DNA of 64,000 nt from Escherichia coli (GTDB taxonomy: Bacteria; Pseudomonadota; Gammaproteobacteria; Enterobacterales; Enterobacteriaceae), in NCBI RefSeq assembly GCF_044324875.1, contig NZ_CP172185.1; one strand, written 5' to 3'. Of the stretch, positions 9,447 to 48,000 are shown in pieces; the stretch's first letter is position 1; the number at the start of each line of letters is the position of its first letter. The notes under the pieces are model-generated. The model made no database searches, was not told the DNA's origin, and saw nothing but the letters and a program-made list of their open reading frames with translations. Both the position numbers and the translations under genes were made by a program.

Positions 9447-12233
9447 TTAGTGCGCCTGATCCCAGTTTTCGCCACTCCCCACTTCCACCAGCAACGGCAC
9501 ATCCAGACGGGTACAGTTTTCCATCAGTTGATGAATCTGCTTCGCGACGGCATCGACATCATCTTTATGAACTTCAAATACCAGTTCATCGTGTACCTGC
9601 ATGATCATACGCACACGCGGTTGCTCAGCCTGTAGCCACGTATCAACGGCAATCATTGCCCGTTTGATAATGTCGGCGGCGGTTCCCTGCATTGGCGCGT
9701 TAATGGCTGCACGTTCAGCCGCTGCACGACGAGCACCATTGCTGGATTTGATATCCGGCAGATACAGACGGCGTCCGTCCAGCGTTTCAACGTAGCCCTG
9801 CTCTTTCGCCTGAGCACGGGTGCGTTCCATATACTCCAGCACGCCAGGGTAGCGTTCGAAGTAAAGGTCCATGTACTTCTGCGCTTCTTTACGTGGAATG
9901 TTCAATTGCCGCGCCAGACCGAAAGCACTCATGCCATAAATCAGACCAAAGTTGATCGCTTTCGCGCTACGGCGTTGCTCGCTGGTGACGGTTTCCAGTG
10001 GCAAACCAAACACTTCTGCCGCCGTTGCCCGGTGGATATCTTTTCCTTCCGCGAATGCGGTCAGCAAGCCTTTGTCACGCGAGAGATGCGCCATAATGCG
10101 CAGTTCAATCTGCGAGTAGTCCGCTGAGACAATCACATAATCCTCTGGCGCAATAAACGCCTGGCGGATACGACGACCTTCTTCGTTACGCACCGGAATG
10201 TTTTGCAGGTTAGGATCGGTTGACGATAAACGTCCCGTTGCAGTTACTGCCTGGTGATAAGAGGTATGCACACGCCCGGTTTTCGGGTTGATCATCAGCG
10301 GCAGCTTGTCGGTGTAAGTCGATTTCAGCTTCGCCAGACCACGATACTCCAGAATCACTTTTGGCAACGGATAGTCCAGCGCCAGTTCTTCCAGTACCTC
10401 TTCCGACGTTGACGGCGCGCCACCTGGCGTTTTCTTCAGCGGTTTAATGCCCTGTTTTTCAAACAGAATGGTTTGTAACTGCTTGGTGGAAGAAAGATTA
10501 AACTCCTCACCTGCAATTTCATGCGCTTTCTTTTCCAGCTCAACCAGACGAAGAGTGAGCTCTTCAGAATGATTGTGCAGCACTTTCGGATCGATCTTCA
10601 CACCGTTACGTTCAATGCGTGAAAGCACCGGCACTAGCGGCATTTCGATATTCTCGAAGACGTTCAACGGCCCTTTGTGTTTTTGCAGATCCGGCCACAT
10701 TTTCAGATGCAGCTGCAAGGTGACATCTGCATCTTCGGCGGCGTAACGTCCGGCCTCTTCCAGGGCAATCTGGTTAAAGGTCAGTTGATTTTTACCTTTA
10801 CCAGCAATCTCTTCAAAAGTGATGGTTTTGTGCTTCAACCAACGTTCCGCGAGGCTGTCCATATCGTGACGCCCGGCAACGCTATTGAGAATGTAGGACT
10901 CCAGCATGGTATCAAATGCAATCCCACGCAGCTCAATGCCGTAATTCGCCAGAATACCGCGATCGTATTTCAGGTTTTGCCCGACCTTCAGCGCCTTTTC
11001 ATCTTCCAGCAGCGGTTTTAGCAACTCGAGTGCACGCTCGCGAGAGATTTGATCGGGCGCATCAAGATAATCATGAGCAACCGGAATATATGCCGCTACG
11101 CCTGGCTCGATAGCAAAAGAAAGCCCGACCAGGTTAGCAGAGATGTTATCAAGGCTGTCGGTTTCGGTATCAAATGCAAATACCGGCGCTTTTTCCAGCT
11201 TCGCAATCCACGCTTTCAGTGTTTCTTCATCAAGGATGGTGACGTAGTTGTCATAAGAAATCACCGTTGCCGTCACTTCTGGTGCTTCGTCTGCAACACT
11301 GGTTTCCTGTGGCTTCGCGGCTGGTTTTGCCCCTTTGGCCTGTAACCATTTGCCCGCTTCGACATCAGCAGTCCAGCGTTTGAACTCATACTTTTTGAAC
11401 AGCCCCAACAACTCTTCCGCTGCCGGTTGCTGCACTTCCAGTTGTTCGCAGGTCAGCTCCAGTTCAACGTCGGTTTTAATCGTCGCCAGCTGGTATGAGA
11501 GATAAGCAACTTCTTTGTTTTGCTCGAGCTTCGCTGCCATTGTTTTCGCGCCACGGAAGCTCAACCCGGCAATTTTTTCTGGCTCGGCATACAGCGTATC
11601 CAGTCCGCCAAGACCTTGCAGCAATGCCTGTGCGGTTTTTTCACCGACGCCCGGTACGCCTGGAATGTTATCAGAGGAGTCACCCATCAGCGCCAGGAAG
11701 TCGATGATCAATTCTGGCGGCACGCCGTACTTATTCACCACCTCTTCCGGTCCGAGGATGGTATTCGTCATAGTGTTGATAAGCGTAATATTTGGCGTCA
11801 CCAGCTGCGCCATATCTTTATCGCCAGTGCTGATCAGCACCGGACGCCCGGCTTTTTCGGCTTCGCGCGCCAGAGTACCGATAACGTCGTCCGCTTCTAC
11901 GCCAGAAACCGCCAGCAGCGGCAGTCCCATCGCTTTAACCATCGCGTGCAAAGGTTCGATTTGTGCACGCAGATCGTCCGGCATTGGCGGGCGATGTGAT
12001 TTGTAATGTTCAAACAGTTCATCACGAAAGGTTTTTCCCTTGGCGTCAAAGACCACCGCTGCATGCGTCGGTTTATATTGCATGATCAGACTGCGCAGCA
12101 TGTTGAGGACACCATACATCGCACCGGTCGGCTCGCCTGCGCTGTTAGTCAGCGGGGGAAACGCGTGATATGCGCGATAAAGATAAGATGAACCATCTAC
12201 AAGGATAAGTGGATTTTGGGGGATCTGAACCAT
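9447..12233 (-). CDS. polA: DNA polymerase I
   Basis: 928-aa ORF with 5'-3' exonuclease, 3'-5' exonuclease and polymerase domains (e.g. [23 protein letters not shown]). Confidence 0.98.
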
Positions 12234-12596
12234 AATGTCCGTGCCTGTTTATCAGATTATGGGTAAAGGATGCCACAGACAGGATGAAAACATGAGTTTT
12301 TCACCGCTTTTCGTGAAAATCTTTTGTAGATCTTCTGGATCGCTCGCAAATCGTCATGTGGATAACTTTGTGCATAAATTATTTACATCGCTTTTAATTT
12401 ATTATCATGCTTTTTACAGCATGATGTTTGTCTTTGTTTTTCATGAAGTTAAAAATAAGACCATCCCTAATGATTGAGATAATGGGATTTTTTCTAATGT
12501 GGATAGATATGAATTATTTTTCTCCTTAAGGATCATCCGTTATTTGGGTCGTTTTCTGCTAAAATCTGCGCCTTGCGCTTCTTTAGCGCACTGTCT

Positions 12597-13529
12597 ATGG
12601 CTAACTTTTTGAATAAATTCATTATGACGAGAATACTCGCTGCGATAACCCTTTTGCTGAGTATCGTATTGACCATTTTGGTCACTATTTTTTGCTCCGT
12701 CCCGATCATCATTGCCGGGATTGTAAAACTATTGCTTCCTGTGCCAGTCATTTGGCGAAAGGTTTCGCGTTTTTGTGATTTTATGATGTATTGCTGGTGC
12801 GAAGGTCTGGCGGTATTACTGCATCTGAACCCACACCTGCAATGGGAAGTTCACGGGCTGGAAGGGTTAAGTAAGAAGAACTGGTATCTGCTTATTTGTA
12901 ACCACCGTAGTTGGGCAGATATTGTCGTACTGTGCGTGCTGTTTCGTAAGCACATTCCGATGAATAAATATTTCCTCAAGCAGCAACTGGCCTGGGTGCC
13001 TTTTCTTGGCCTGGCGTGCTGGGCGCTGGATATGCCGTTCATGAAGCGTTATTCCCGCGCTTATTTATTACGTCATCCGGAGCGACGTGGTAAAGATGTC
13101 GAAACCACTCGGCGTTCTTGTGAAAAGTTTCGCCTGCATCCCACCACCATTGTCAATTTCGTTGAAGGCTCCCGTTTCACGCAAGAAAAACATCAGCAAA
13201 CCCACTCCACTTTTCAAAACTTGTTGCCACCAAAGGCGGCAGGCATTGCGATGGCGCTAAATGTACTGGGTAAACAATTCGATAAACTGCTTAATGTTAC
13301 GCTGTGTTATCCGGACAATAACCGTCAGCCGTTCTTCGATATGTTAAGCGGTAAACTGACGCGAATTGTCGTACATGTGGATTTGCAGTCTATTTCCGAT
13401 GAGTTACATGGCGACTACATCAATGACAAAAGCTTTAAGCGCCATTTTCAGCAATGGCTGAACTCACTGTGGCAGGAAAAAGACCGGCTTCTGACGTCGT
13501 TGATGTCATCACAGCGGCAGGACAAGTAA
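12597..13529 (+). CDS. yihG: Putative acyltransferase (PlsC-like)
   Basis: ORF with N-terminal membrane segment and the acyltransferase NHRSWADI motif; start chosen at MANFLNKF. Confidence 0.85.
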
Positions 13530-13535
13530 ATTTTG

Positions 13536-13561
13536 CTCGCCTCTGAATGAGCAGAGGCGAG
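13536..13561. terminator. Hairpin between convergent yihG and yihF
   Basis: ctcgcctctg / cagaggcgag inverted repeat; no strong U-run. Confidence 0.35.
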
Positions 13562-13569
13562 TGAGTATT

Positions 13570-15000
13570 TTAATGAACAAAACGTCCGGCACGAGACATA
13601 AATTCTTCTTCGCTCATCTCCTGTCCGTTAAAAGCAACTTTACCCGGTGTATAACGCAGTTGCAGCGAGGCGGTATTGTTGTCAATCGTGATTAACTGAA
13701 ACATCTGACCTAAGGTCATCATCCCGCTGATTTGTTTATCAGCCTGCTTTTGCGCTTTTTCCGCATCCATTCCTTCAGATAAATTAAGCTGTTTTGCGAT
13801 TTCTGTGGCGACATTAAGCGGTAATTTCACATCAAAATTGAGCGATTTAATATCTTTGTTTGTGGATGATGAAGATTTGGCTGGGTCGGCAATACTGATA
13901 TCCAGATTGGCATTTAGTTCGCCGAGTGCGTTCTTCCATCTTACCGGTTGTTTAATGGTCGGCTCACTTTTTTGTAATAACGGTAAATACTCTTTGAACA
14001 ATGCAGCATTCACTTCTTGCAGAGCAACTTCATCGTTTGCTAACTCAGGGTGTGCAGCAAGCTGCTTCTGCATCGCAATGTTATACTGGATGATAAATTG
14101 GCGCACCGCTGAGGGATCAATAGATTCAGCAATCAATGACCACTCACCACTACCGAGTTGCTGATTCCCTTTTGTTAACTTATCAAGTTCGTAGGTCAGA
14201 TTGACATTGATATAATCTTTGTCTTTAACGCGATCCAGCCTGGTTTTTGCAACGAAAGCATCGATTTGGGCAACGTCTTCCCCGTGATTGATAATGTTAA
14301 TCTGATTAAATTTCGACTCGCTTTCACCAACCGGAAATTTCTTTTCTTCTAATCGCGCCAGAGAATCAATGGTAAAACTTTTCGCCGTTACTTTGTTCAT
14401 TGGTGATAATTGCAGAACAATATCTTCGACTTTGCCTTCAATATCCAGGTTAGACAATGAACTACCATCACCATTAAAAGTAAACTGGCCCTTACCAAAG
14501 GAAAACTTTCCATACTCTGCAGGGGCAACATCTAATGTCGTGGAGAATGAGCTACCAAACGCGAACCTCAATGTCGCTTCCACGGGCGATTTATTTTTCG
14601 CGGCGATAAATAGCGGTTGTGTCAGTTCATTATTCACTAAGTTCACTTTTACCGCTGCCAGTACTGGGATGACATTACCATGCATTAACATTGTGATGGG
14701 CAACGGACCGTGCTCAACATCCACATCAAATGCAACTTTCTGGCCTGGCTTGATATTGAGATCGGGTGTACCGTTATCAAATGTCATTTGCATTTGAAAA
14801 CGAGAATTAAAAAAGCCTTTGTCAAAATTTTTATAACTTAACGTCATATCGTAGGCATGTTCACCTTTCTTTTTAGCATCGTTAAAATCTTTAATAAATT
14901 TTTCGACACCAGGCTGAATTTGCGTACCTGTGTACCATGTGCCACCGCCCCAGATTACGGCTAACGCAACAATAACACCTGTAGCTGACTTACGTATCAT
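13570..15000 (-). CDS. yihF: DUF945-family protein YihF
   Basis: ORF with N-terminal membrane/signal segment; start chosen at MIRKSATGVIVALAV (476 aa). Confidence 0.85.
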   Translation of the reverse strand: MIRKSATGVIVALAVIWGGGTWYTGTQIQPGVEKFIKDFNDAKKKGEHAYDMTLSYKNFDKGFFNSRFQMQMTFDNGTPDLNIKPGQKVAFDVDVEHGPLPITMLMHGNVIPVLAAVKVNLVNNELTQPLFIAAKNKSPVEATLRFAFGSSFSTTLDVAPAEYGKFSFGKGQFTFNGDGSSLSNLDIEGKVEDIVLQLSPMNKVTAKSFTIDSLARLEEKKFPVGESESKFNQINIINHGEDVAQIDAFVAKTRLDRVKDKDYINVNLTYELDKLTKGNQQLGSGEWSLIAESIDPSAVRQFIIQYNIAMQKQLAAHPELANDEVALQEVNAALFKEYLPLLQKSEPTIKQPVRWKNALGELNANLDISIADPAKSSSSTNKDIKSLNFDVKLPLNVATEIAKQLNLSEGMDAEKAQKQADKQISGMMTLGQMFQLITIDNNTASLQLRYTPGKVAFNGQEMSEEEFMSRAGRFVH

Positions 15001-42658: not shown

Positions 42659-43471
42659 ATGGCAACAACACAACAATCTGGATTTGCACCTGCTGCATCG
42701 CCTCTCGCTTCGACCATCGTTCAGACCCCGGACGACGCGATTGCGGCGGGCTTCACCTCTATCCCCTCACAAGGGGATAACATGCCTGCTTACCATGCCA
42801 GACCAAAGCAGAGCGATGGCCCACTGCCAGTGGTCATTGTAGTGCAGGAAATTTTTGGCGTGCATGAACATATCCGCGACATTTGTCGCCGTCTGGCGCT
42901 GGAGGGGTATCTGGCTATCGCACCTGAACTTTACTTCCGCGAAGGCGATCCGAATGATTTTGCCGATATCCCCACGTTACTTAGCGGTCTGGTAGCAAAA
43001 GTGCCTGACTCGCAGGTGCTGGCCGATCTCGATCATGTCGCCAGTTGGGCTTCCCGCAACGGCGGCGATGTACATCGTTTAATGATCACCGGATTCTGCT
43101 GGGGGGGACGTATCACCTGGCTGTATGCTGCGCATAACCCGCAACTGAAAGCGGCGGTGGCATGGTACGGCAAACTGACAGGCGATAAGTCGCTGAATTC
43201 ACCGAAACAACCTGTTGATATCGCAACCGATCTTAACGCGCCGGTTCTCGGCTTATATGGTGGTCAGGATAACAGCATTCCGCAGGAGAGCGTTGAAACC
43301 ATGCGCCAGGCGCTGCGGGCTGCTAATGCGAAAGCAGAGATTATCGTCTACCCGGATGCCGGGCATGCATTCAACGCCGATTATCGCCCGAGCTATCATG
43401 CCGAATCTGCGAAAGATGGCTGGCAGCGTATGCTGGAGTGGTTTAAGCAGTATGGTGGGAAGCGGAATTAG
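42659..43471 (+). CDS. ysgA: Putative dienelactone hydrolase family protein
   Basis: Start chosen at MATTQQSGFAPAAS (271 aa); alpha/beta hydrolase motifs (GFCWGG). Confidence 0.9.
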   Translation: MATTQQSGFAPAASPLASTIVQTPDDAIAAGFTSIPSQGDNMPAYHARPKQSDGPLPVVIVVQEIFGVHEHIRDICRRLALEGYLAIAPELYFREGDPNDFADIPTLLSGLVAKVPDSQVLADLDHVASWASRNGGDVHRLMITGFCWGGRITWLYAAHNPQLKAAVAWYGKLTGDKSLNSPKQPVDIATDLNAPVLGLYGGQDNSIPQESVETMRQALRAANAKAEIIVYPDAGHAFNADYRPSYHAESAKDGWQRMLEWFKQYGGKRN

Positions 43472-43862
43472 TTTCCTCTTAGTCTATATTTGAGATGGTG
43501 AGTGAACGAGTGCGTTTTGCTGCCATCTCTGTCCCCCAAAAAATAATCAGTATGAATTGATTGGAGAGCACGACTCCGCTATTTGACCTTAAGAAAGTCG
43601 GCAAGTAATAGTCATAAGTGAGTCTCTTCACTGGCAGACACCTTAGAGATTTACCATCAACTCCCATTCTCAAACAAACATTAATTATTATCAACACATT
43701 CACATTAATTATAAATTATCTCAGACCTTCCTGATAAAAAGATATTAAAGTGAAACATTTTGTTTTTCACATTTTAGTTCATCCCTTTTAGGCGTAAATA
43801 AAGGTAAAAAATAACAATACTATTTTTCTTTCACAAAAGAATTAACAAAAGGTTTTTCAAGG

Positions 43863-44996
43863 ATGAGTGATATTATTTACCTGAACATAACCGGAGAACA
43901 ACAAGGATGTATTTCCTCTCGTTGTGGAACGAGCGCATCAATAGGTAATCGCTGGCAGATTGGCCATGAAGATGAAATCTTCGCGTTCTCGCTCTCTAAT
44001 AGTATTACGAATACAGGCAAAGGGTCACAATTGCATGGCCTTAGTTTCTGTAAATTGATTGACAAAAGCTCCCCGTTACTTATTAACGCTATTAACAATA
44101 ACGAGCAGTTGTTCATGGAGTTTGACTTCTATCGGATCAATAGATTTGGTCGATGGGAGAAATATTACAACATTCAACTTCGCGGCGCGCTCTTATCAGC
44201 AATCAATCACCTGTTTACTGAGAACAATCTGGATACAGAAACCATCACTGTCAGTTATGAATATATACTCTCCAGGCATCTGATTGCTAATACTGAATTT
44301 AGTTATTTGGCATTTCCCGATAACTACAACCGTCTGTTTATACCACGGCCAAAAACTAAAGATGATAATGGCCTCAAAACACTCAATAGTAAAGCGGTTG
44401 GCAGACTGCTTGCTGCTGGCGGCATATACAATGGGAATATCGAAGGATTCAGGGAAACAGCAAACAAGTTGGGAGGAGATGCACCTGCTGGTTACGATCA
44501 AGTTATGGATAACAAAGGGTTACTCATCGCTGGTGCTTCAATAGTTGCTGGAGTTGTTCTGGGAAGAATGAGATTCCCTGATTTGGAATCACTTGAGCAT
44601 TTCGGAGCCAGAGGAGCAGTATCAGGAAGACCATTTAATCCCGACCTTGCCGGTGGTCCAATTGAAAACCTGACGATAGATGGCGTAACAATCAACAGGG
44701 AAGGTATCGCTATTGTTGAAAAGCATATCTCCAGATTTGATCATGATCCAGCTAATGATGTAATGATTTCAAGGCTAAAGAAAATAGCAAATAAAGAATT
44801 GCTTCCTGAAAAATACGATCTGAACTACTATACTCATGAATGTCGCGAGTATCAGCGTTATTGTAATTTAGGATGGGAAACAGGTGAACCGAAAGGTTTA
44901 GATGGATATGAATTATGGAATAATGTACATACTGCAACTCTAGAAGACTTTAAAATTAAAGATACTGACTTATTTCATCCGGATGCAAAAAAATGA
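43863..44996 (+). CDS. Hcp-domain protein with C-terminal extension (candidate Hcp-fused type VI secretion effector toxin)
   Basis: 377-aa ORF in AT-rich DNA. N-terminal ~155 aa follow the Hcp family pattern (YLNITGE...LHGLSFCKLIDKSSPLL...YYNIQL), alignable by eye with E. coli Hcp. The C-terminal ~220 aa have no family I can assign. Family call is by recall, not by search. Confidence 0.7.
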   Translation: MSDIIYLNITGEQQGCISSRCGTSASIGNRWQIGHEDEIFAFSLSNSITNTGKGSQLHGLSFCKLIDKSSPLLINAINNNEQLFMEFDFYRINRFGRWEKYYNIQLRGALLSAINHLFTENNLDTETITVSYEYILSRHLIANTEFSYLAFPDNYNRLFIPRPKTKDDNGLKTLNSKAVGRLLAAGGIYNGNIEGFRETANKLGGDAPAGYDQVMDNKGLLIAGASIVAGVVLGRMRFPDLESLEHFGARGAVSGRPFNPDLAGGPIENLTIDGVTINREGIAIVEKHISRFDHDPANDVMISRLKKIANKELLPEKYDLNYYTHECREYQRYCNLGWETGEPKGLDGYELWNNVHTATLEDFKIKDTDLFHPDAKK

Positions 44997-45250
44997 CGAT
45001 TACGATAGTTGAATTTAACGTGCTGAAAGTTATGGCTGAGAAAGATATTGACTGGAGCTGGATGGTGCTGGATCGTACTTTAGCTATACGAAATATTCCA
45101 GGATTTGGCAACGTAGCGAATATCGTAACAAAGCTGGTTAATCATGGGTTGGTTGATATCGTAAATGGTGAGGGCAACTCTAGACCACGCTACAGAGTTT
45201 CTCAATATGGATTGAATCTTATCAAAGAACAACAAGACAACCTCTTCTGA
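44993..45250 (+). CDS. Small hypothetical protein, candidate cognate immunity protein
   Basis: 85-aa ORF whose ATG overlaps the upstream stop (ATGA at 44993-44996); paralogue of the next ORF; conserved LDRTL-IR-IPGFGNV-NIV-KL--GLV block. Confidence 0.6.
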   Translation: MTITIVEFNVLKVMAEKDIDWSWMVLDRTLAIRNIPGFGNVANIVTKLVNHGLVDIVNGEGNSRPRYRVSQYGLNLIKEQQDNLF

Positions 45251-45309
45251 TCCAGCCATTACAGGAGCATGATTTACATTGTGATCTTTCAATAAGATAC
45301 TCATCAATT

Positions 45310-45570
45310 TTGGTACAGAATATCGTGATCACTAAAAATGAACTTAACGTGCTGAACGTTATGACTGAGAAAGATATAAACTGGAACTGGATGAATCTCG
45401 ATCGCACACTATCCATAAGGCAAATTCCAGGATTCGGGAATGTTGTTAACATTGTTAACAAATTAGCTAACGAAGGTTTGGTTATTATTGAGGATAGCGG
45501 GAATAAGTCTATGCCTCACTACCACGTTAGTGAAAAGGGATACAATCTCGTGCAACGTGAGAATAAATAA
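45310..45570 (+). CDS. Small hypothetical protein, paralogue of the preceding gene (candidate second or orphan immunity protein)
   Basis: 86-aa ORF with roughly 60% identity by eye to the 44993-45250 product, plus clear nucleotide similarity; track start is TTG at 45310, and an in-frame GTG at 45325 is an alternative start. Confidence 0.5.
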   Translation: MVQNIVITKNELNVLNVMTEKDINWNWMNLDRTLSIRQIPGFGNVVNIVNKLANEGLVIIEDSGNKSMPHYHVSEKGYNLVQRENK

Positions 45571-45676
45571 CGTAGCGTTGATTACTGAACGGAATCACTC
45601 AAAACTGTGTTTTGCGAAAAAAACGATTCGGTTATTTCTGCTCCTGAAGATCAGCTTCAATCTGGCACTCATGCAA

Positions 45677-45702
45677 AATGGCTTCCAGTGCTGGAAGCCA
45701 TT
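45677..45702. repeat. 26-bp near-perfect palindrome between the insertion and the metE 3' end
   Basis: aatggcttccag tg ctggaagccatt; possible bidirectional terminator. Confidence 0.5.
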
Positions 45703-45738
45703 ATCGTACTGCAATTTACAGTGACTCGTTAATATTCG

Positions 45739-48000
45739 TCATCCCCGACGCAAATTCTGCGCCGCCTGCACCATGTTCGCCAGTGCCGCGCGGGTTTCTG
45801 GCCAGCCGCGCGTTTTCAGGCCACAGTCCGGGTTGACCCACAGACGCTCTGCCGGAATGCGTTTTGCCGCTTTCTTCAGCAAGGCTTCAATCCATTCCAC
45901 GCTCGGTACGTTTGGCGAGTGAATGTCATAGACGCCAGGACCGATTTCATTTGGATAATCAAACTCTTCAAACGACTCCAGCAACTCCATGTCGGAACGC
46001 GAGGTTTCGATGGTGATGACGTCTGCGTCCAGCGCCGCAATCGAATCCATGATGTCGTTGAACTCGCAGTAACACATGTGAGTGTGGATTTGTGTGTCAT
46101 CTTTCGCCACGGCGGCGTTGATACGGAAAGCCTCCACGCCCCACTGGAGATAGGCATCCCAGTCGCCGCGACGCAGCGGTAAACCTTCGCGCAGTGCCGG
46201 TTCATCAATCTGGATGATGCCAATTCCAGCGGCTTCCAGGTCCGCCACTTCATCACGCAGCGCCAGCGCAATTTGTTTGGCGATGGTTTCACGGCTGACA
46301 TCTTCACGCGGGAACGACCAGCAGAGAATGGTCACCGGGCCGGTCAGCATCCCTTTCACCGGTTTGTCAGTCAGCGATTGCGCATACTTCGCCCACTCAA
46401 TGGTAATCGGTGCCGGGCGGCTAACGTCACCAATGACAATCGGCGGCTTCACGCAGCGGGAACCGTAGCTCTGTACCCAACCGTTTTGCGTAAAGACAAA
46501 ACCGTCGAGATGCTCGCCAAAGTATTCCACCATGTCATTACGCTCGGCCTCGCCATGCACCAGCACATCCAGACCTAAACGTTCCTGCTCAACAATGGCC
46601 TGCTTGATATGTTCCGCAATGCCCGTGCGGTAGTTGTTGGCGTCGAGATTACCCTTTTTGAAATCCAGACGCAGGGTACGAATTTCCGTGGTTTGCGGGA
46701 AGGAACCAATCGTGGTGGTCGGCCACGCGGGCAGTTTAAAACGCGCACGCTGGGCTTCAGCACGCACTTCATAGACATTCGCACGCTGACTGTCCTGAGC
46801 GGTGATCGCCGCCAGACGCTTTTCTACTGCCGGATTATGTACGCGGGTTGAGTGACGACGCGCCTGAATCGGAGCGCTCCACTCTGCCAGAGCAGCCGTG
46901 TCACCACTGTTCAGCGCATCGCGCAGCAGTGCCAGTTCATGACATTTTTGCAGGGCGAAGGCAAACCAGCTTTTCACTTCTGCATCAAGACGCGTTTCCA
47001 CGCTCAGGTCGATGGGGCTGTGCAGCAGTGAGCAGGAAGATGCCACCCACAAATCGCGTTTGCCGACAATGTCCTTAATTTGCGCATACTTCTCGGTAAG
47101 ATCGGCGCGCCAGACGTTACGACCATTGATCAGACCCGCAGACAGCAGCCAGTCAGAAGGCAGACGCTTGTGCAGTTCAGCAACGTCATCTTTACCATGT
47201 ACAAGATCGACATGCAGACCCTGAACAGGCAGCGCAGTAATCGTGTCGAGATTTGGCGTTACGCCTTCAAAATAGGTGGTCAGCAGCAGTTTCACCTGTC
47301 CCTGGAGCGCGTCGTAAGCGGGTTTGTATGCGTCCAGCCACGCCTGCGGTAGTTCCAGTACCAGCGCTGGTTCGTCGATCTGTACCCACTCAATACCGCG
47401 TTTTGCCAGTTCTGCCAGCACTTGCTGATAAATCGGAAGAATGTCGTTCAGCAGGCTCAGGCGATCAAACTGTTCACCTTTCACTTTACCCAGCCACAGG
47501 TAGGTAACCGGCCCCAGCAGCACAGGTTTCACCTTGTGGCCCAGCGCCAGCGCCTCGTCCACTTCCTCCAGCAGCTGCGTCCAGGTCAGTTTGAACTGTT
47601 GGCCTTTAACGAACTCCGGCACCATGTAGTGATAGTTGGTGTTAAACCATTTGGTCATTTCCGCTGCCGCCGCAGGTTCACCAGTCGGCGCACGTCCACG
47701 ACCAATACGGAACAGGGTGTCGATATCTACCGAACCATCTTTGTTCTGATGACGTGGCGGAACATTACCCAGCAGCAGACTGGTGGTCAGTACATGATCG
47801 TACCAGGCAAAATCGCCCACCGGCAGCAGGTCGATACCCGCCTGCTTTTGTTGATCCCAGTGACGGGCACGTAATTCACGCCCAACCGCCAGCAGTTCTT
47901 CACGCGTGGAGTTCCCCGCCCAATAACTTTCTTGCGCTTTTTTCAGCTCGCGACGCAGGCCAACGCGAGGGAAACCGAGGGTGTGATTCAATATTGTCAT
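45739..48000 (-). CDS. metE: Cobalamin-independent methionine synthase
   Basis: 753-aa [32 protein letters not shown]... Confidence 0.97.

Follow-up and report, generated by a model that had tools for sequence, protein, structure and literature searches.

Reviews that cite Ma et al. 2017 describe the "evolved Hcp" (Hcp-ET) class as a set of antibacterial effectors that are delivered by a type VI secretion system (T6SS) and have immunity genes, often duplicated, downstream (PMC6730261, PMC6099711). Five toxin types are named in these summaries: HNH-DNase, DUF2235/Tle1, Pyocin_S, Colicin-DNase and papain-like peptidase (PMC6730261, PMC6099711). It has been argued from structural work that at most one Hcp-ET fits in each Hcp ring, beside five ordinary Hcps (PMC13323088), and YhhZ of Escherichia coli K-12 is an Hcp-HNH protein (PMC5714182, PMC2907695). 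We analysed a 64-kb stretch of E. coli DNA (64,000 nucleotides of contig NZ_CP172185.1, hereafter the window) in which a block located between the core genes ysgA and metE, at 43463..45742, carries a gene for a 377-aa Hcp-toxin fusion and two small genes, imm1 and imm2. The block is, in our view, likely an orphan T6SS effector-immunity cassette of the Hcp-ET class.

The Hcp-toxin gene was located at 43863..44996 (+ strand). Its Hcp (TssD) domain (aa 1-147, 43863..44303, + strand) was recognised by TIGR03344 (E 2.8e-36, 124.9 bits against a cut-off of 58.9) and by PF05638 (E 4.8e-14), the latter being the sole Pfam domain with E <= 10 in the whole protein, and it matched the Hcp chains 6a2v and 3he1 of the PDB (E 8.5e-15). 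The protein thus has the N-terminal Hcp domain of an Hcp-ET; its C-terminal extension is 230 aa long, where at least ~120 aa are needed for this class, the last ~135 aa form one confident domain, and the predicted cognate immunity gene lies directly downstream. The cassette is already annotated automatically as tssD. The first-pass annotation had read the gene as an Hcp-toxin fusion, and this reading was borne out by the two Hcp models and by the C-terminal domain, which is a polymorphic-toxin module. It had also taken the three codirectional genes to be absent from K-12, which is correct for the ysgA-metE junction; a paralogous fusion, YhhZ, is encoded elsewhere in K-12.

Comparison with YhhZ showed that aa 1-230 of the window protein are 73% identical to the K-12 protein, while the C-terminal domains beyond ~aa 230 could not be aligned. 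When the Hcp part was used in a DNA search for distant matches, most E. coli genomes, K-12 among them, proved to have a paralogue of 75% identity; this is yhhZ, at yhhY-ggt, followed by yrhA. The linker (aa 148-240, 44304..44582, + strand) was delimited by its conservation in YhhZ and by the helical model. Its predicted helices (aa 177-232) end in a hydrophobic Gly/Ala-rich segment, GLLIAGASIVAGVVLG, and it is kept in YhhZ to ~aa 230 and in DUF8093-toxin proteins (95-100% query coverage in non-Hcp proteins), the junction at which the toxin modules diverge being the end of the linker. Speculatively, the linker might aid passage of the toxin across the inner membrane. The AlphaFold model of the full-length protein had a low global confidence (predicted template modelling score, pTM, 0.39) and showed three separately folded modules with a helical linker. 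At a third paralogous locus, aroP-pdhR, we found Usp (Hcp-ET3-4) with four annotated bacteriocin immunity genes; Pyocin_S (PF06958) and Colicin-DNase, which follow Hcp in Hcp-ET3-4/Usp, are absent from the window protein. As these sequence comparisons indicate, E. coli holds a family of predicted orphan "evolved Hcp" cassettes, in which exchangeable C-terminal toxins are carried on a common Hcp-plus-linker chassis.

The C-terminal toxin domain (aa 241-377, with the stop codon at 44583..44996, + strand) was delimited by alignment and by its model. When aa 241-377 were compared with 1.84 billion representative proteins, 462 clusters were returned at E <= 0.001, in which the domain is nearly always C-terminal in host proteins of ~100 to 5,214 aa. 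Thirty-five diverse copies could be aligned without major gaps, and twelve residues are invariant among them (G264, G265, H288, R304, D319, H325, E326, E329, R332, W352, H356 and A358, in the numbering of the full-length protein), eight of which are polar or charged (H, D, E, R). None of these 35 members matched any Pfam family, NCBIfam had no match for the toxin domain, sequence profiles of it matched nothing in the PDB, and no PDB nuclease matched it. The AlphaFold model of the domain alone was confident (mean predicted local distance difference test score, pLDDT, 91.2; pTM 0.82) and consists of a short N-terminal β-hairpin followed by four long helices. With Foldseek against AFDB50, the same domain was found at the C-terminal end of S-type pyocins, colicin/klebicin-like proteins, PAAR and Rhs proteins, an LXG protein and DUF8093 proteins, and a Pfam scan of 40 full-length relatives found Pyocin_S in 7 of the 40 and PAAR in 2, along with Rhs, the core of an extracellular contractile injection system (eCIS), WXG100 and LysM. 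As modelled, the fold appears to be new and very widely distributed. Pyocin_S serves for translocation across the inner membrane and is typical of those bacteriocins and T6SS effectors whose site of action is the cytoplasm (PMC9040868), and inspection of the small neighbouring proteins showed no signal peptide; our best inference from these two observations is that the target of the toxin is cytoplasmic, probably nucleic acid or the translation machinery. The literature searched by toxin sequence motif and for DUF8093 yielded nothing relevant. T6EC4 of Citrobacter koseri, which combines Hcp with an unannotated domain (PMC11148199), was considered as a carrier of the same toxin and set aside, as its domain is Tox-REase-5-like and is not the mainly helical one of the window.

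RefSeq names truncated copies of the toxin (hits H64 and H69) "HNH endonuclease" or "colicin", names for which we found no Pfam, NCBIfam or structural support and which most likely stem from the shared linker or from the pyocin-type relatives. Taken at face value, and together with the 73% identity of aa 1-230 to YhhZ, which carries an HNH domain (PMC5714182), they would make the C-terminal domain an HNH (His-Me finger) DNase and the protein another copy of Hcp-ET1/YhhZ. This is extremely unlikely. The likeness to YhhZ ends at ~aa 230, ahead of the C-terminal domains; the absence of Pfam matches among the 35 members extends to HNH and Colicin-DNase; the confident model is made mainly of the four long helices and has no ββα-metal finger; and the alignment holds no H-N-H-type motif. 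Moreover, E. coli 55989, a reported Hcp-ET1 carrier, has an empty ysgA-metE site. Identity with Hcp-ET1 was therefore rejected, the site of 55989 being empty, K-12 YhhZ sharing aa 1-230 only and no HNH domain being found.

The first of the two small genes, imm1 (44993..45250, + strand, 85 aa), starts within the stop of the toxin gene (ATGA overlap) and was assigned as the predicted cognate immunity gene from this overlap and from its homologues. The second, imm2 (45310..45570, + strand), is a predicted orphan immunity gene of 86 aa if read from TTG 45310 or of 81 aa from GTG 45325 (RefSeq-style). The two are paralogues, with 59% identity by BLASTP and 61.7% by global alignment. Homologous genes of 89-90 aa (39-58% identity) directly follow the same toxin domain in Hcp fusions of Salmonella and Citrobacter, which are located at yhhX-ggt and not at metE, and in a DUF8093 fusion of Pantoea, and the gene after a PAAR-type relative is homologous to imm1 (hhalign 94.9%, E 4e-8). 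In these four other contexts the small gene accompanies the toxin domain whatever the delivery domain, as expected for immunity.

Many NCBI records call these small proteins "MarR family transcriptional regulator", and a weak Pfam match to an EarA-like winged-helix family (E 0.21) and a sequence pattern compatible with a small helix-turn-helix fold go in the same direction, so that imm1 and imm2 could be MarR-like winged-helix transcription factors that regulate the cassette. We regard this as very unlikely for several reasons. No MarR model of Pfam or NCBIfam matched, nor did any family at E <= 0.1, and the products, at 81-86 aa, are far shorter than MarR proteins, which are typically ~140-150 aa long and need extra helices to dimerise. 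The gene tracks the toxin domain and not Hcp, being found directly 3' of the same toxin in DUF8093 and PAAR proteins of other genera; it co-varies with the toxin tip between the two alleles of the cassette, A and B, described below; and it is translationally coupled to the toxin gene. A winged-helix-like fold would in any case be compatible with an immunity function. On these comparisons imm1 is best read as the cognate immunity gene and imm2 as an orphan immunity gene.

Two cassettes from other genera bear on the association of toxin and small gene. In Pantoea (L013, 4001-5316), the linker and toxin are fused to a DUF8093 N-terminal domain in place of Hcp and are accompanied by a homologous 90-aa immunity gene; this cassette has a type I restriction hsdR gene on one side and a reverse-transcriptase gene on the other. 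In Citrobacter europaeus (L008, 3016-7403), tandem Hcp-toxin cassettes lie between a yhhY-like acetyltransferase gene and ggt, in the order 370-aa Hcp fusion with two 84-aa genes, Imm35-family gene, and 379-aa orthologue of the window toxin with an 89-aa immunity gene. In the latter arrangement, exchangeable Hcp-ET modules are lined up in an array at the locus where K-12 has yhhZ.

About 127 genomes matched the block at only 80-95% identity, and the two of these that were looked at (L017 and L018) carry a second allele, allele B, which encodes a protein of 382 aa, frameshifted in L018, and has just one immunity gene after it. Comparison of the allele B protein with that of the window (allele A) showed 96.7% identity over aa 1-240 and only 75.9% over aa 241-377. 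The allele B immunity gene is 87.7% identical to imm2, as against 60.5% to imm1, and imm2 is therefore best read as an orphan left by displacement of a cassette. When the window was compared with L017 in 100-bp blocks, identity was 95-100% up to ~44700, fell to 71-76% at 44700-45000, and was 87-98% in imm2, while 45000-45320, which holds imm1, was absent from allele B. The allele-specific module, consisting of the toxin tip and imm1, was placed at 44700..45320 (+ strand) from these blocks and is bordered on both sides by DNA that is 87-100% identical. The parsimonious reading of this pattern is that a new toxin tip may have recombined in, with its own immunity gene, upstream of an older immunity gene, which would now be an orphan. 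L018-type copies, in which the Hcp-toxin gene is frameshifted and the immunity gene is intact, would fit a history in which the toxin was lost and immunity was kept.

The mechanism that we propose for the cassette is that of an Hcp-ET subunit. One copy of the fusion would join five ordinary Hcps in a ring of the T6SS tube, with the toxin in the lumen, and would be fired into neighbouring bacteria. The helical linker, with its hydrophobic end, would join Hcp to the ~135-aa, mainly helical toxin domain, which would most likely act in the cytoplasm of the prey on nucleic acid or on the translation apparatus. The 85-aa product of imm1, translationally coupled to the toxin, would protect the producer and its kin as cognate immunity. 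The imm2 gene would have been retained when the new module of toxin tip plus immunity gene displaced the older allele, and should protect against allele B strains. A possible machine was found in strain 7/2, whose island is 100% identical to that of the window and which has a complete aspV-linked T6SS (tssA-M, clpV, two hcp, vgrG and an Rhs gene).

Several points weigh against this reading. Secretion, toxicity and neutralisation are all deduced from sequence. With only 30-38% identity to the T6SS Hcps of strain 7/2, the Hcp domain of the fusion may not be compatible with that machine; the co-occurrence with a T6SS is that seen in strain 7/2. K-12 keeps yhhZ without any T6SS, and it has been argued that orphan "evolved Hcps" may act independently of the T6SS (Blondel et al. 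2009, PMC2907695). The direction of the event that separates alleles A and B (displacement as opposed to deletion plus divergence) follows from parsimony, and the role of imm2 in immunity from its identity to the gene next to the toxin of the other allele.

Some of these points would also suit a decaying or T6SS-independent remnant, that is, a cassette that is unsecreted, silenced or employed for something else in the cell, an idea put forward at one time for YhhZ and Usp. The state of yhhZ in K-12 and the proposed T6SS-independent roles (PMC2907695), the divergence of the Hcp domain from structural Hcps, the AT-rich leader, which may suggest silencing by H-NS, and the copies that are frameshifted or interrupted by IS1 or IS3 in some genomes all agree with it. 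We consider a remnant unlikely, however. The three open reading frames (ORFs) are intact in the window, the 90%-identity cluster of the 377-aa protein has 1,511 member sequences, the exact sequence of the protein was found on 272 contigs, and 841 genomes keep 80% or more of the block. The toxin tip has diversified along with its immunity gene and an orphan has been retained, both of which bear the signature of continuing selection for antagonism; a complete T6SS stands alongside the cassette in strain 7/2; and the paralogous Hcp-ET1, ET3 and ET4 are reported, in the review consulted, to be T6SS-delivered and antibacterial (PMC6730261). An effector-immunity cassette thus remains the preferred reading of the block.

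Comparison by BLAST with K-12-type empty sites and with that of E. coli 55989 showed that the segment 43463..45742, to which no strand was assigned, represents 2,280 bp of foreign DNA between ysgA and metE; alignment with the empty sites and composition agreed with these bounds. Homology to the empty sites stopped at 43462 and returned at 45743, and the segment stands in place of 55 bp of K-12, namely the final 12 nt of ysgA, a 39-nt spacer with a GC-rich hairpin, and the metE stop region. The insertion had been placed at 43472..45738 in the first-pass annotation; its location was right and its bounds were slightly too narrow. That the 3' ends of ysgA and metE nearly abut in K-12 also proved accurate, since 39 nt separate their stop codons in E. 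coli 55989 as in K-12-type genomes. The core gene on the left, ysgA (42659..43471, + strand, dienelactone hydrolase family), had its final codons recoded by the insertion (GGKRN-stop here and GGKKSL-stop in K-12) and is annotated with 813 nt in island-bearing genomes as compared with 816 nt in K-12. The right flanking core gene, metE (45739..48000, - strand), ends with TGA here and with TAA in K-12.

The G+C content of the segment was 38.5%, against 51.2% for the whole window, and was the minimum among all 2,280-bp windows of the 64 kb (mean 51.1%, sd 3.5%), with sliding values of 30-45% over 43450-45700 and of 50-58% in the flanks. At third codon positions, the G+C fraction (GC3) was 0.34-0.45 for the three island ORFs and 0.56-0.63 for udp, ysgA, metE and metR, and an index modelled on the codon adaptation index (CAI), trained on these four flanking genes, put the island ORFs at 0.48-0.50 and the four themselves at 0.64-0.72. 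The earlier estimate by eye of an AT-rich insertion of ~2.3 kb with 35-40% G+C was therefore confirmed by calculation, as were its three codirectional ORFs, all intact and on the + strand. The second-lowest G+C stretch of the window (12200-13700, ~42%) contains yihG (acyltransferase) and the start of yihF and adjoins polA; it was examined as a possible island and rejected, as it holds ordinary core genes only.

The non-coding AT-rich leader (43463..43862, + strand, ~30-37% G+C) was delimited by composition and is presumed to be the promoter region; a promoter search of it gave consensus-level, promoter-like matches only. Its first part, 43463-43669, is specific to the version of the cassette that adjoins ysgA, while the DNA from 43670 onward is common to B2-type genomes in which hxlB is the left neighbour. 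At the other end, a hairpin with a perfect 12-bp stem (45677..45702, fold -25.5 kcal/mol, z -3.0, with no strand assigned) is followed on the - strand by UUUUG, lies ~37 nt beyond the metE stop and stands in for the intergenic terminator of K-12.

The block was found in 857 of 5,426 complete E. coli genomes (~16%, about one in six), and its 862 matching places are all chromosomal, none being on a plasmid. Carriers include the extraintestinal pathogenic strains UTI89 and APEC O1, and the site is empty in K-12, HS and 55989, in agreement with the earlier statement that K-12 lacks the block. The states of the site, as seen in individual genomes (L002, L003, L004), are empty, occupied by the Hcp cassette alone, occupied by a 16-kb tkt1/ptsG/hxlB/MurR/LysR/permease/arcC/fdrA island with or without the cassette, and occupied by shorter versions. 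In B2-type genomes (APEC O1, the K-12/K1 hybrid EV36 and others), homology to the window begins only at 43670 and the left neighbour is the hxlB-ptsG-tkt end of the larger island, which is the 16-kb "tkt1" island listed as GR 29 metE..ysgA (PMC12928451). The tkt1 island is present without the Hcp cassette in some other genomes. Some genomes carry an fdrA/arcC/permease/LysR island that shares only the last ~100 bp, 45635-45742, and L003, whose cargo lacks Hcp, shares 45635-45900. The ~100 bp that adjoin metE, including the terminator hairpin, are thus common to otherwise unrelated cargo. Because the left ends vary and the right ~100 bp are shared in this way, the ysgA-metE junction is a modular multi-cargo hotspot with variable left ends and not the attachment site of one element.

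The low G+C content and atypical codon use point to a foreign source, and insertion sequence (IS) elements lie inside the block in some strains, as might be expected if a site-specific mobile element (integrase island, transposon or phage remnant) had brought the block and had since been stripped of its mobility genes. The ORF list held no integrase- or transposase-sized ORF in the ysgA-metE block, no tRNA was found in the 40-50 kb part of the window, Rfam had no match for the island, and no convincing direct or inverted repeats flank the block. The features expected of a genomic island linked to an integrase or a tRNA, which are an integrase gene, a tRNA or att target and direct repeats at the flanks, were thus missing, and the earlier remark on the lack of an integrase, a transposase, a tRNA and obvious direct repeats held in the ORF, tRNA and repeat checks alike. 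A mobile-element origin is highly unlikely on this account, there being neither mobility genes nor att-like direct repeats nor terminal inverted repeats, and also because no matching place is on a plasmid, because the lineage-dependent left bound (43463 or 43670) and the common right end fit modular recombination, and because the orthologous toxin cassettes of Salmonella and Citrobacter lie at a different core junction (yhhX-ggt), again without mobility genes. We propose instead that the cassette probably arrived by a single illegitimate insertion into the ysgA-metE spacer and that it would now be spread and lost by homologous recombination through the flanking core genes, which would explain both its patchy distribution and the presence of other cargo at the same hotspot.

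IS1 (H1/H2) or IS3 (H67/H68, O145:H28) interrupts the cassette in several lineages. In E. coli 55989, a small insertion adjoining corA (L006, 4825-6494) holds a DUF943 gene, a gene of the YPO3983 family and a duplicated piece of the 3' part of corA. It has the look of a further compact module acquired in this part of the chromosome.

The relatives of the toxin domain among S-type pyocins offer a lead as to its activity. [quoted passage not shown] Carocin D is reported to be a DNase, whereas SX2 showed no DNase activity but blocked in vitro transcription-translation (PMC7322526, PMC10422930). Relatives of the window domain were found in Pseudomonas as pyocins of 694 and 631 aa with Pyocin_S, each followed by an overlapping gene of 88 or 86 aa (L021, L022). 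They have the pyocin-type architecture, with the toxin after Pyocin_S and a ~10 kDa immunity protein encoded downstream; the window protein has Hcp instead of Pyocin_S. As in the pyocin G/SX2/carocin D group, the domain constitutes the ~150-aa C terminus of these S-type pyocins and is followed by an overlapping immunity gene of 85-88 aa, and the window toxin domain is, like that of SX2, without a structural relative. The termini of ImSX2 that can be deduced from published primers (MLDLEG at the start and EKKYGIV at the end; 87 aa) fit the Pseudomonas immunity family (M-x-x-V/I-E at the start and E-K-K/R-Y-x at the end). The likeness to PyoG (ETV05907.1), SX2 (EHF11209.1) and carocin D (ADH95192.1) is one of architecture and primer-deduced termini alone, and searches with the Pseudomonas-type toxin tip and its immunity family returned no P. 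aeruginosa or Pectobacterium proteins. Delivery also differs, being by Hcp fusion here and not by TonB/FtsH-dependent import. We regard a link between the window toxin domain and the cytotoxic domain of this group as moderately probable and treat it as a lead.

The Pseudomonas immunity family (L021, 3582-3848; L022, 3393-3653) consists of proteins of 85-88 aa in about 74 clusters, nearly all from Pseudomonas, and is not detectably related to the imm family of E. coli. The gene downstream of another pyocin-like relative (L019) gave a weak match to the imm family (hhalign E 0.0065, probability 5.8%). Since no relationship between the Pseudomonas family and the E. coli family was detected, the toxin domain is predicted to pair with at least two immunity families. 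It is conceivable, and we put it forward tentatively, that the toxin domain is a new enzymatic fold used across T6SS, S-type pyocins, Rhs proteins, type VII secretion system (T7SS)/LXG proteins and eCIS, with the translation apparatus (as for SX2) and not DNA as its target. Were this true and SX2 a relative, H288, D319, H325, E326, E329, R332 and H356 would define a new catalytic class. If the pyocin link holds, it could also help to settle the conflicting reports of DNase activity and translation inhibition in the pyocin G/SX2/carocin D group.

The class to which the cassette is assigned is already known, and the points of some interest are the toxin domain that belongs to no family, the two alleles with an orphan immunity gene, the hotspot and the misleading names. 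The toxin is present in ~16% of complete E. coli genomes yet has no family or structural relative and goes under names such as "HNH endonuclease", "colicin" and "MarR regulator". Identification of its target would annotate several hundred related toxin clusters on pyocins and on PAAR, Rhs, LXG and eCIS proteins, and for genome annotation the ysgA-metE junction should be treated as a recombination hotspot with modular cargo. Displacement of allele B by allele A would predict one-way cross-protection, in which carriers of the window allele should resist allele B attackers and not the reverse. The two-allele structure would then be a natural kin-discrimination locus with incompatible alleles, and the two alleles with the orphan immunity gene would lead one to expect that E. 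coli lineages meeting in the gut are compatible in one direction more than in the other.

Sequential replacement of T6SS effector-immunity modules that leaves orphan immunity genes behind is known from the auxiliary clusters of Vibrio cholerae and from the orphan arrays of Rhs and CdiA. The cassette resembles these in that a new tip and its predicted cognate immunity gene stand upstream of a retained immunity gene of the other allele; it differs from them in having one orphan only and no visible toxin-gene fragment between imm1 and imm2. Usp, at aroP-pdhR, is likewise an orphan Hcp-toxin fusion with tandem small immunity genes, located between core genes and without mobility genes, but it has Pyocin_S and a colicin-type HNH DNase with immunity proteins of the Colicin_Pyocin type, which the window protein does not, and the Hcp domains are only ~67% identical at the DNA level. 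YhhZ-YrhA of K-12, of the Hcp-ET1 type, has the same layout, with an immunity gene overlapping the toxin stop, and its locus is where Salmonella and Citrobacter have the window's toxin type; its last ~150 aa and its immunity protein, which is of the YrhA family, have no relation to those of the window, and the chromosomal site differs. In comparison with the Hcp-ETs as a class, the window toxin domain falls outside the five named types, since no Pfam match follows the Hcp domain, and the literature searched, in which Ma et al. 2017 is represented by reviews, held no description of an Hcp-ET at ysgA-metE. The overall plan is nevertheless that of the class: the window protein likewise joins an N-terminal Hcp to a C-terminal toxin, immunity genes, often duplicated in Hcp-ETs, follow it, and the cassette, too, is an orphan that stands apart from T6SS clusters, in a small AT-rich insertion with core genes on either side.

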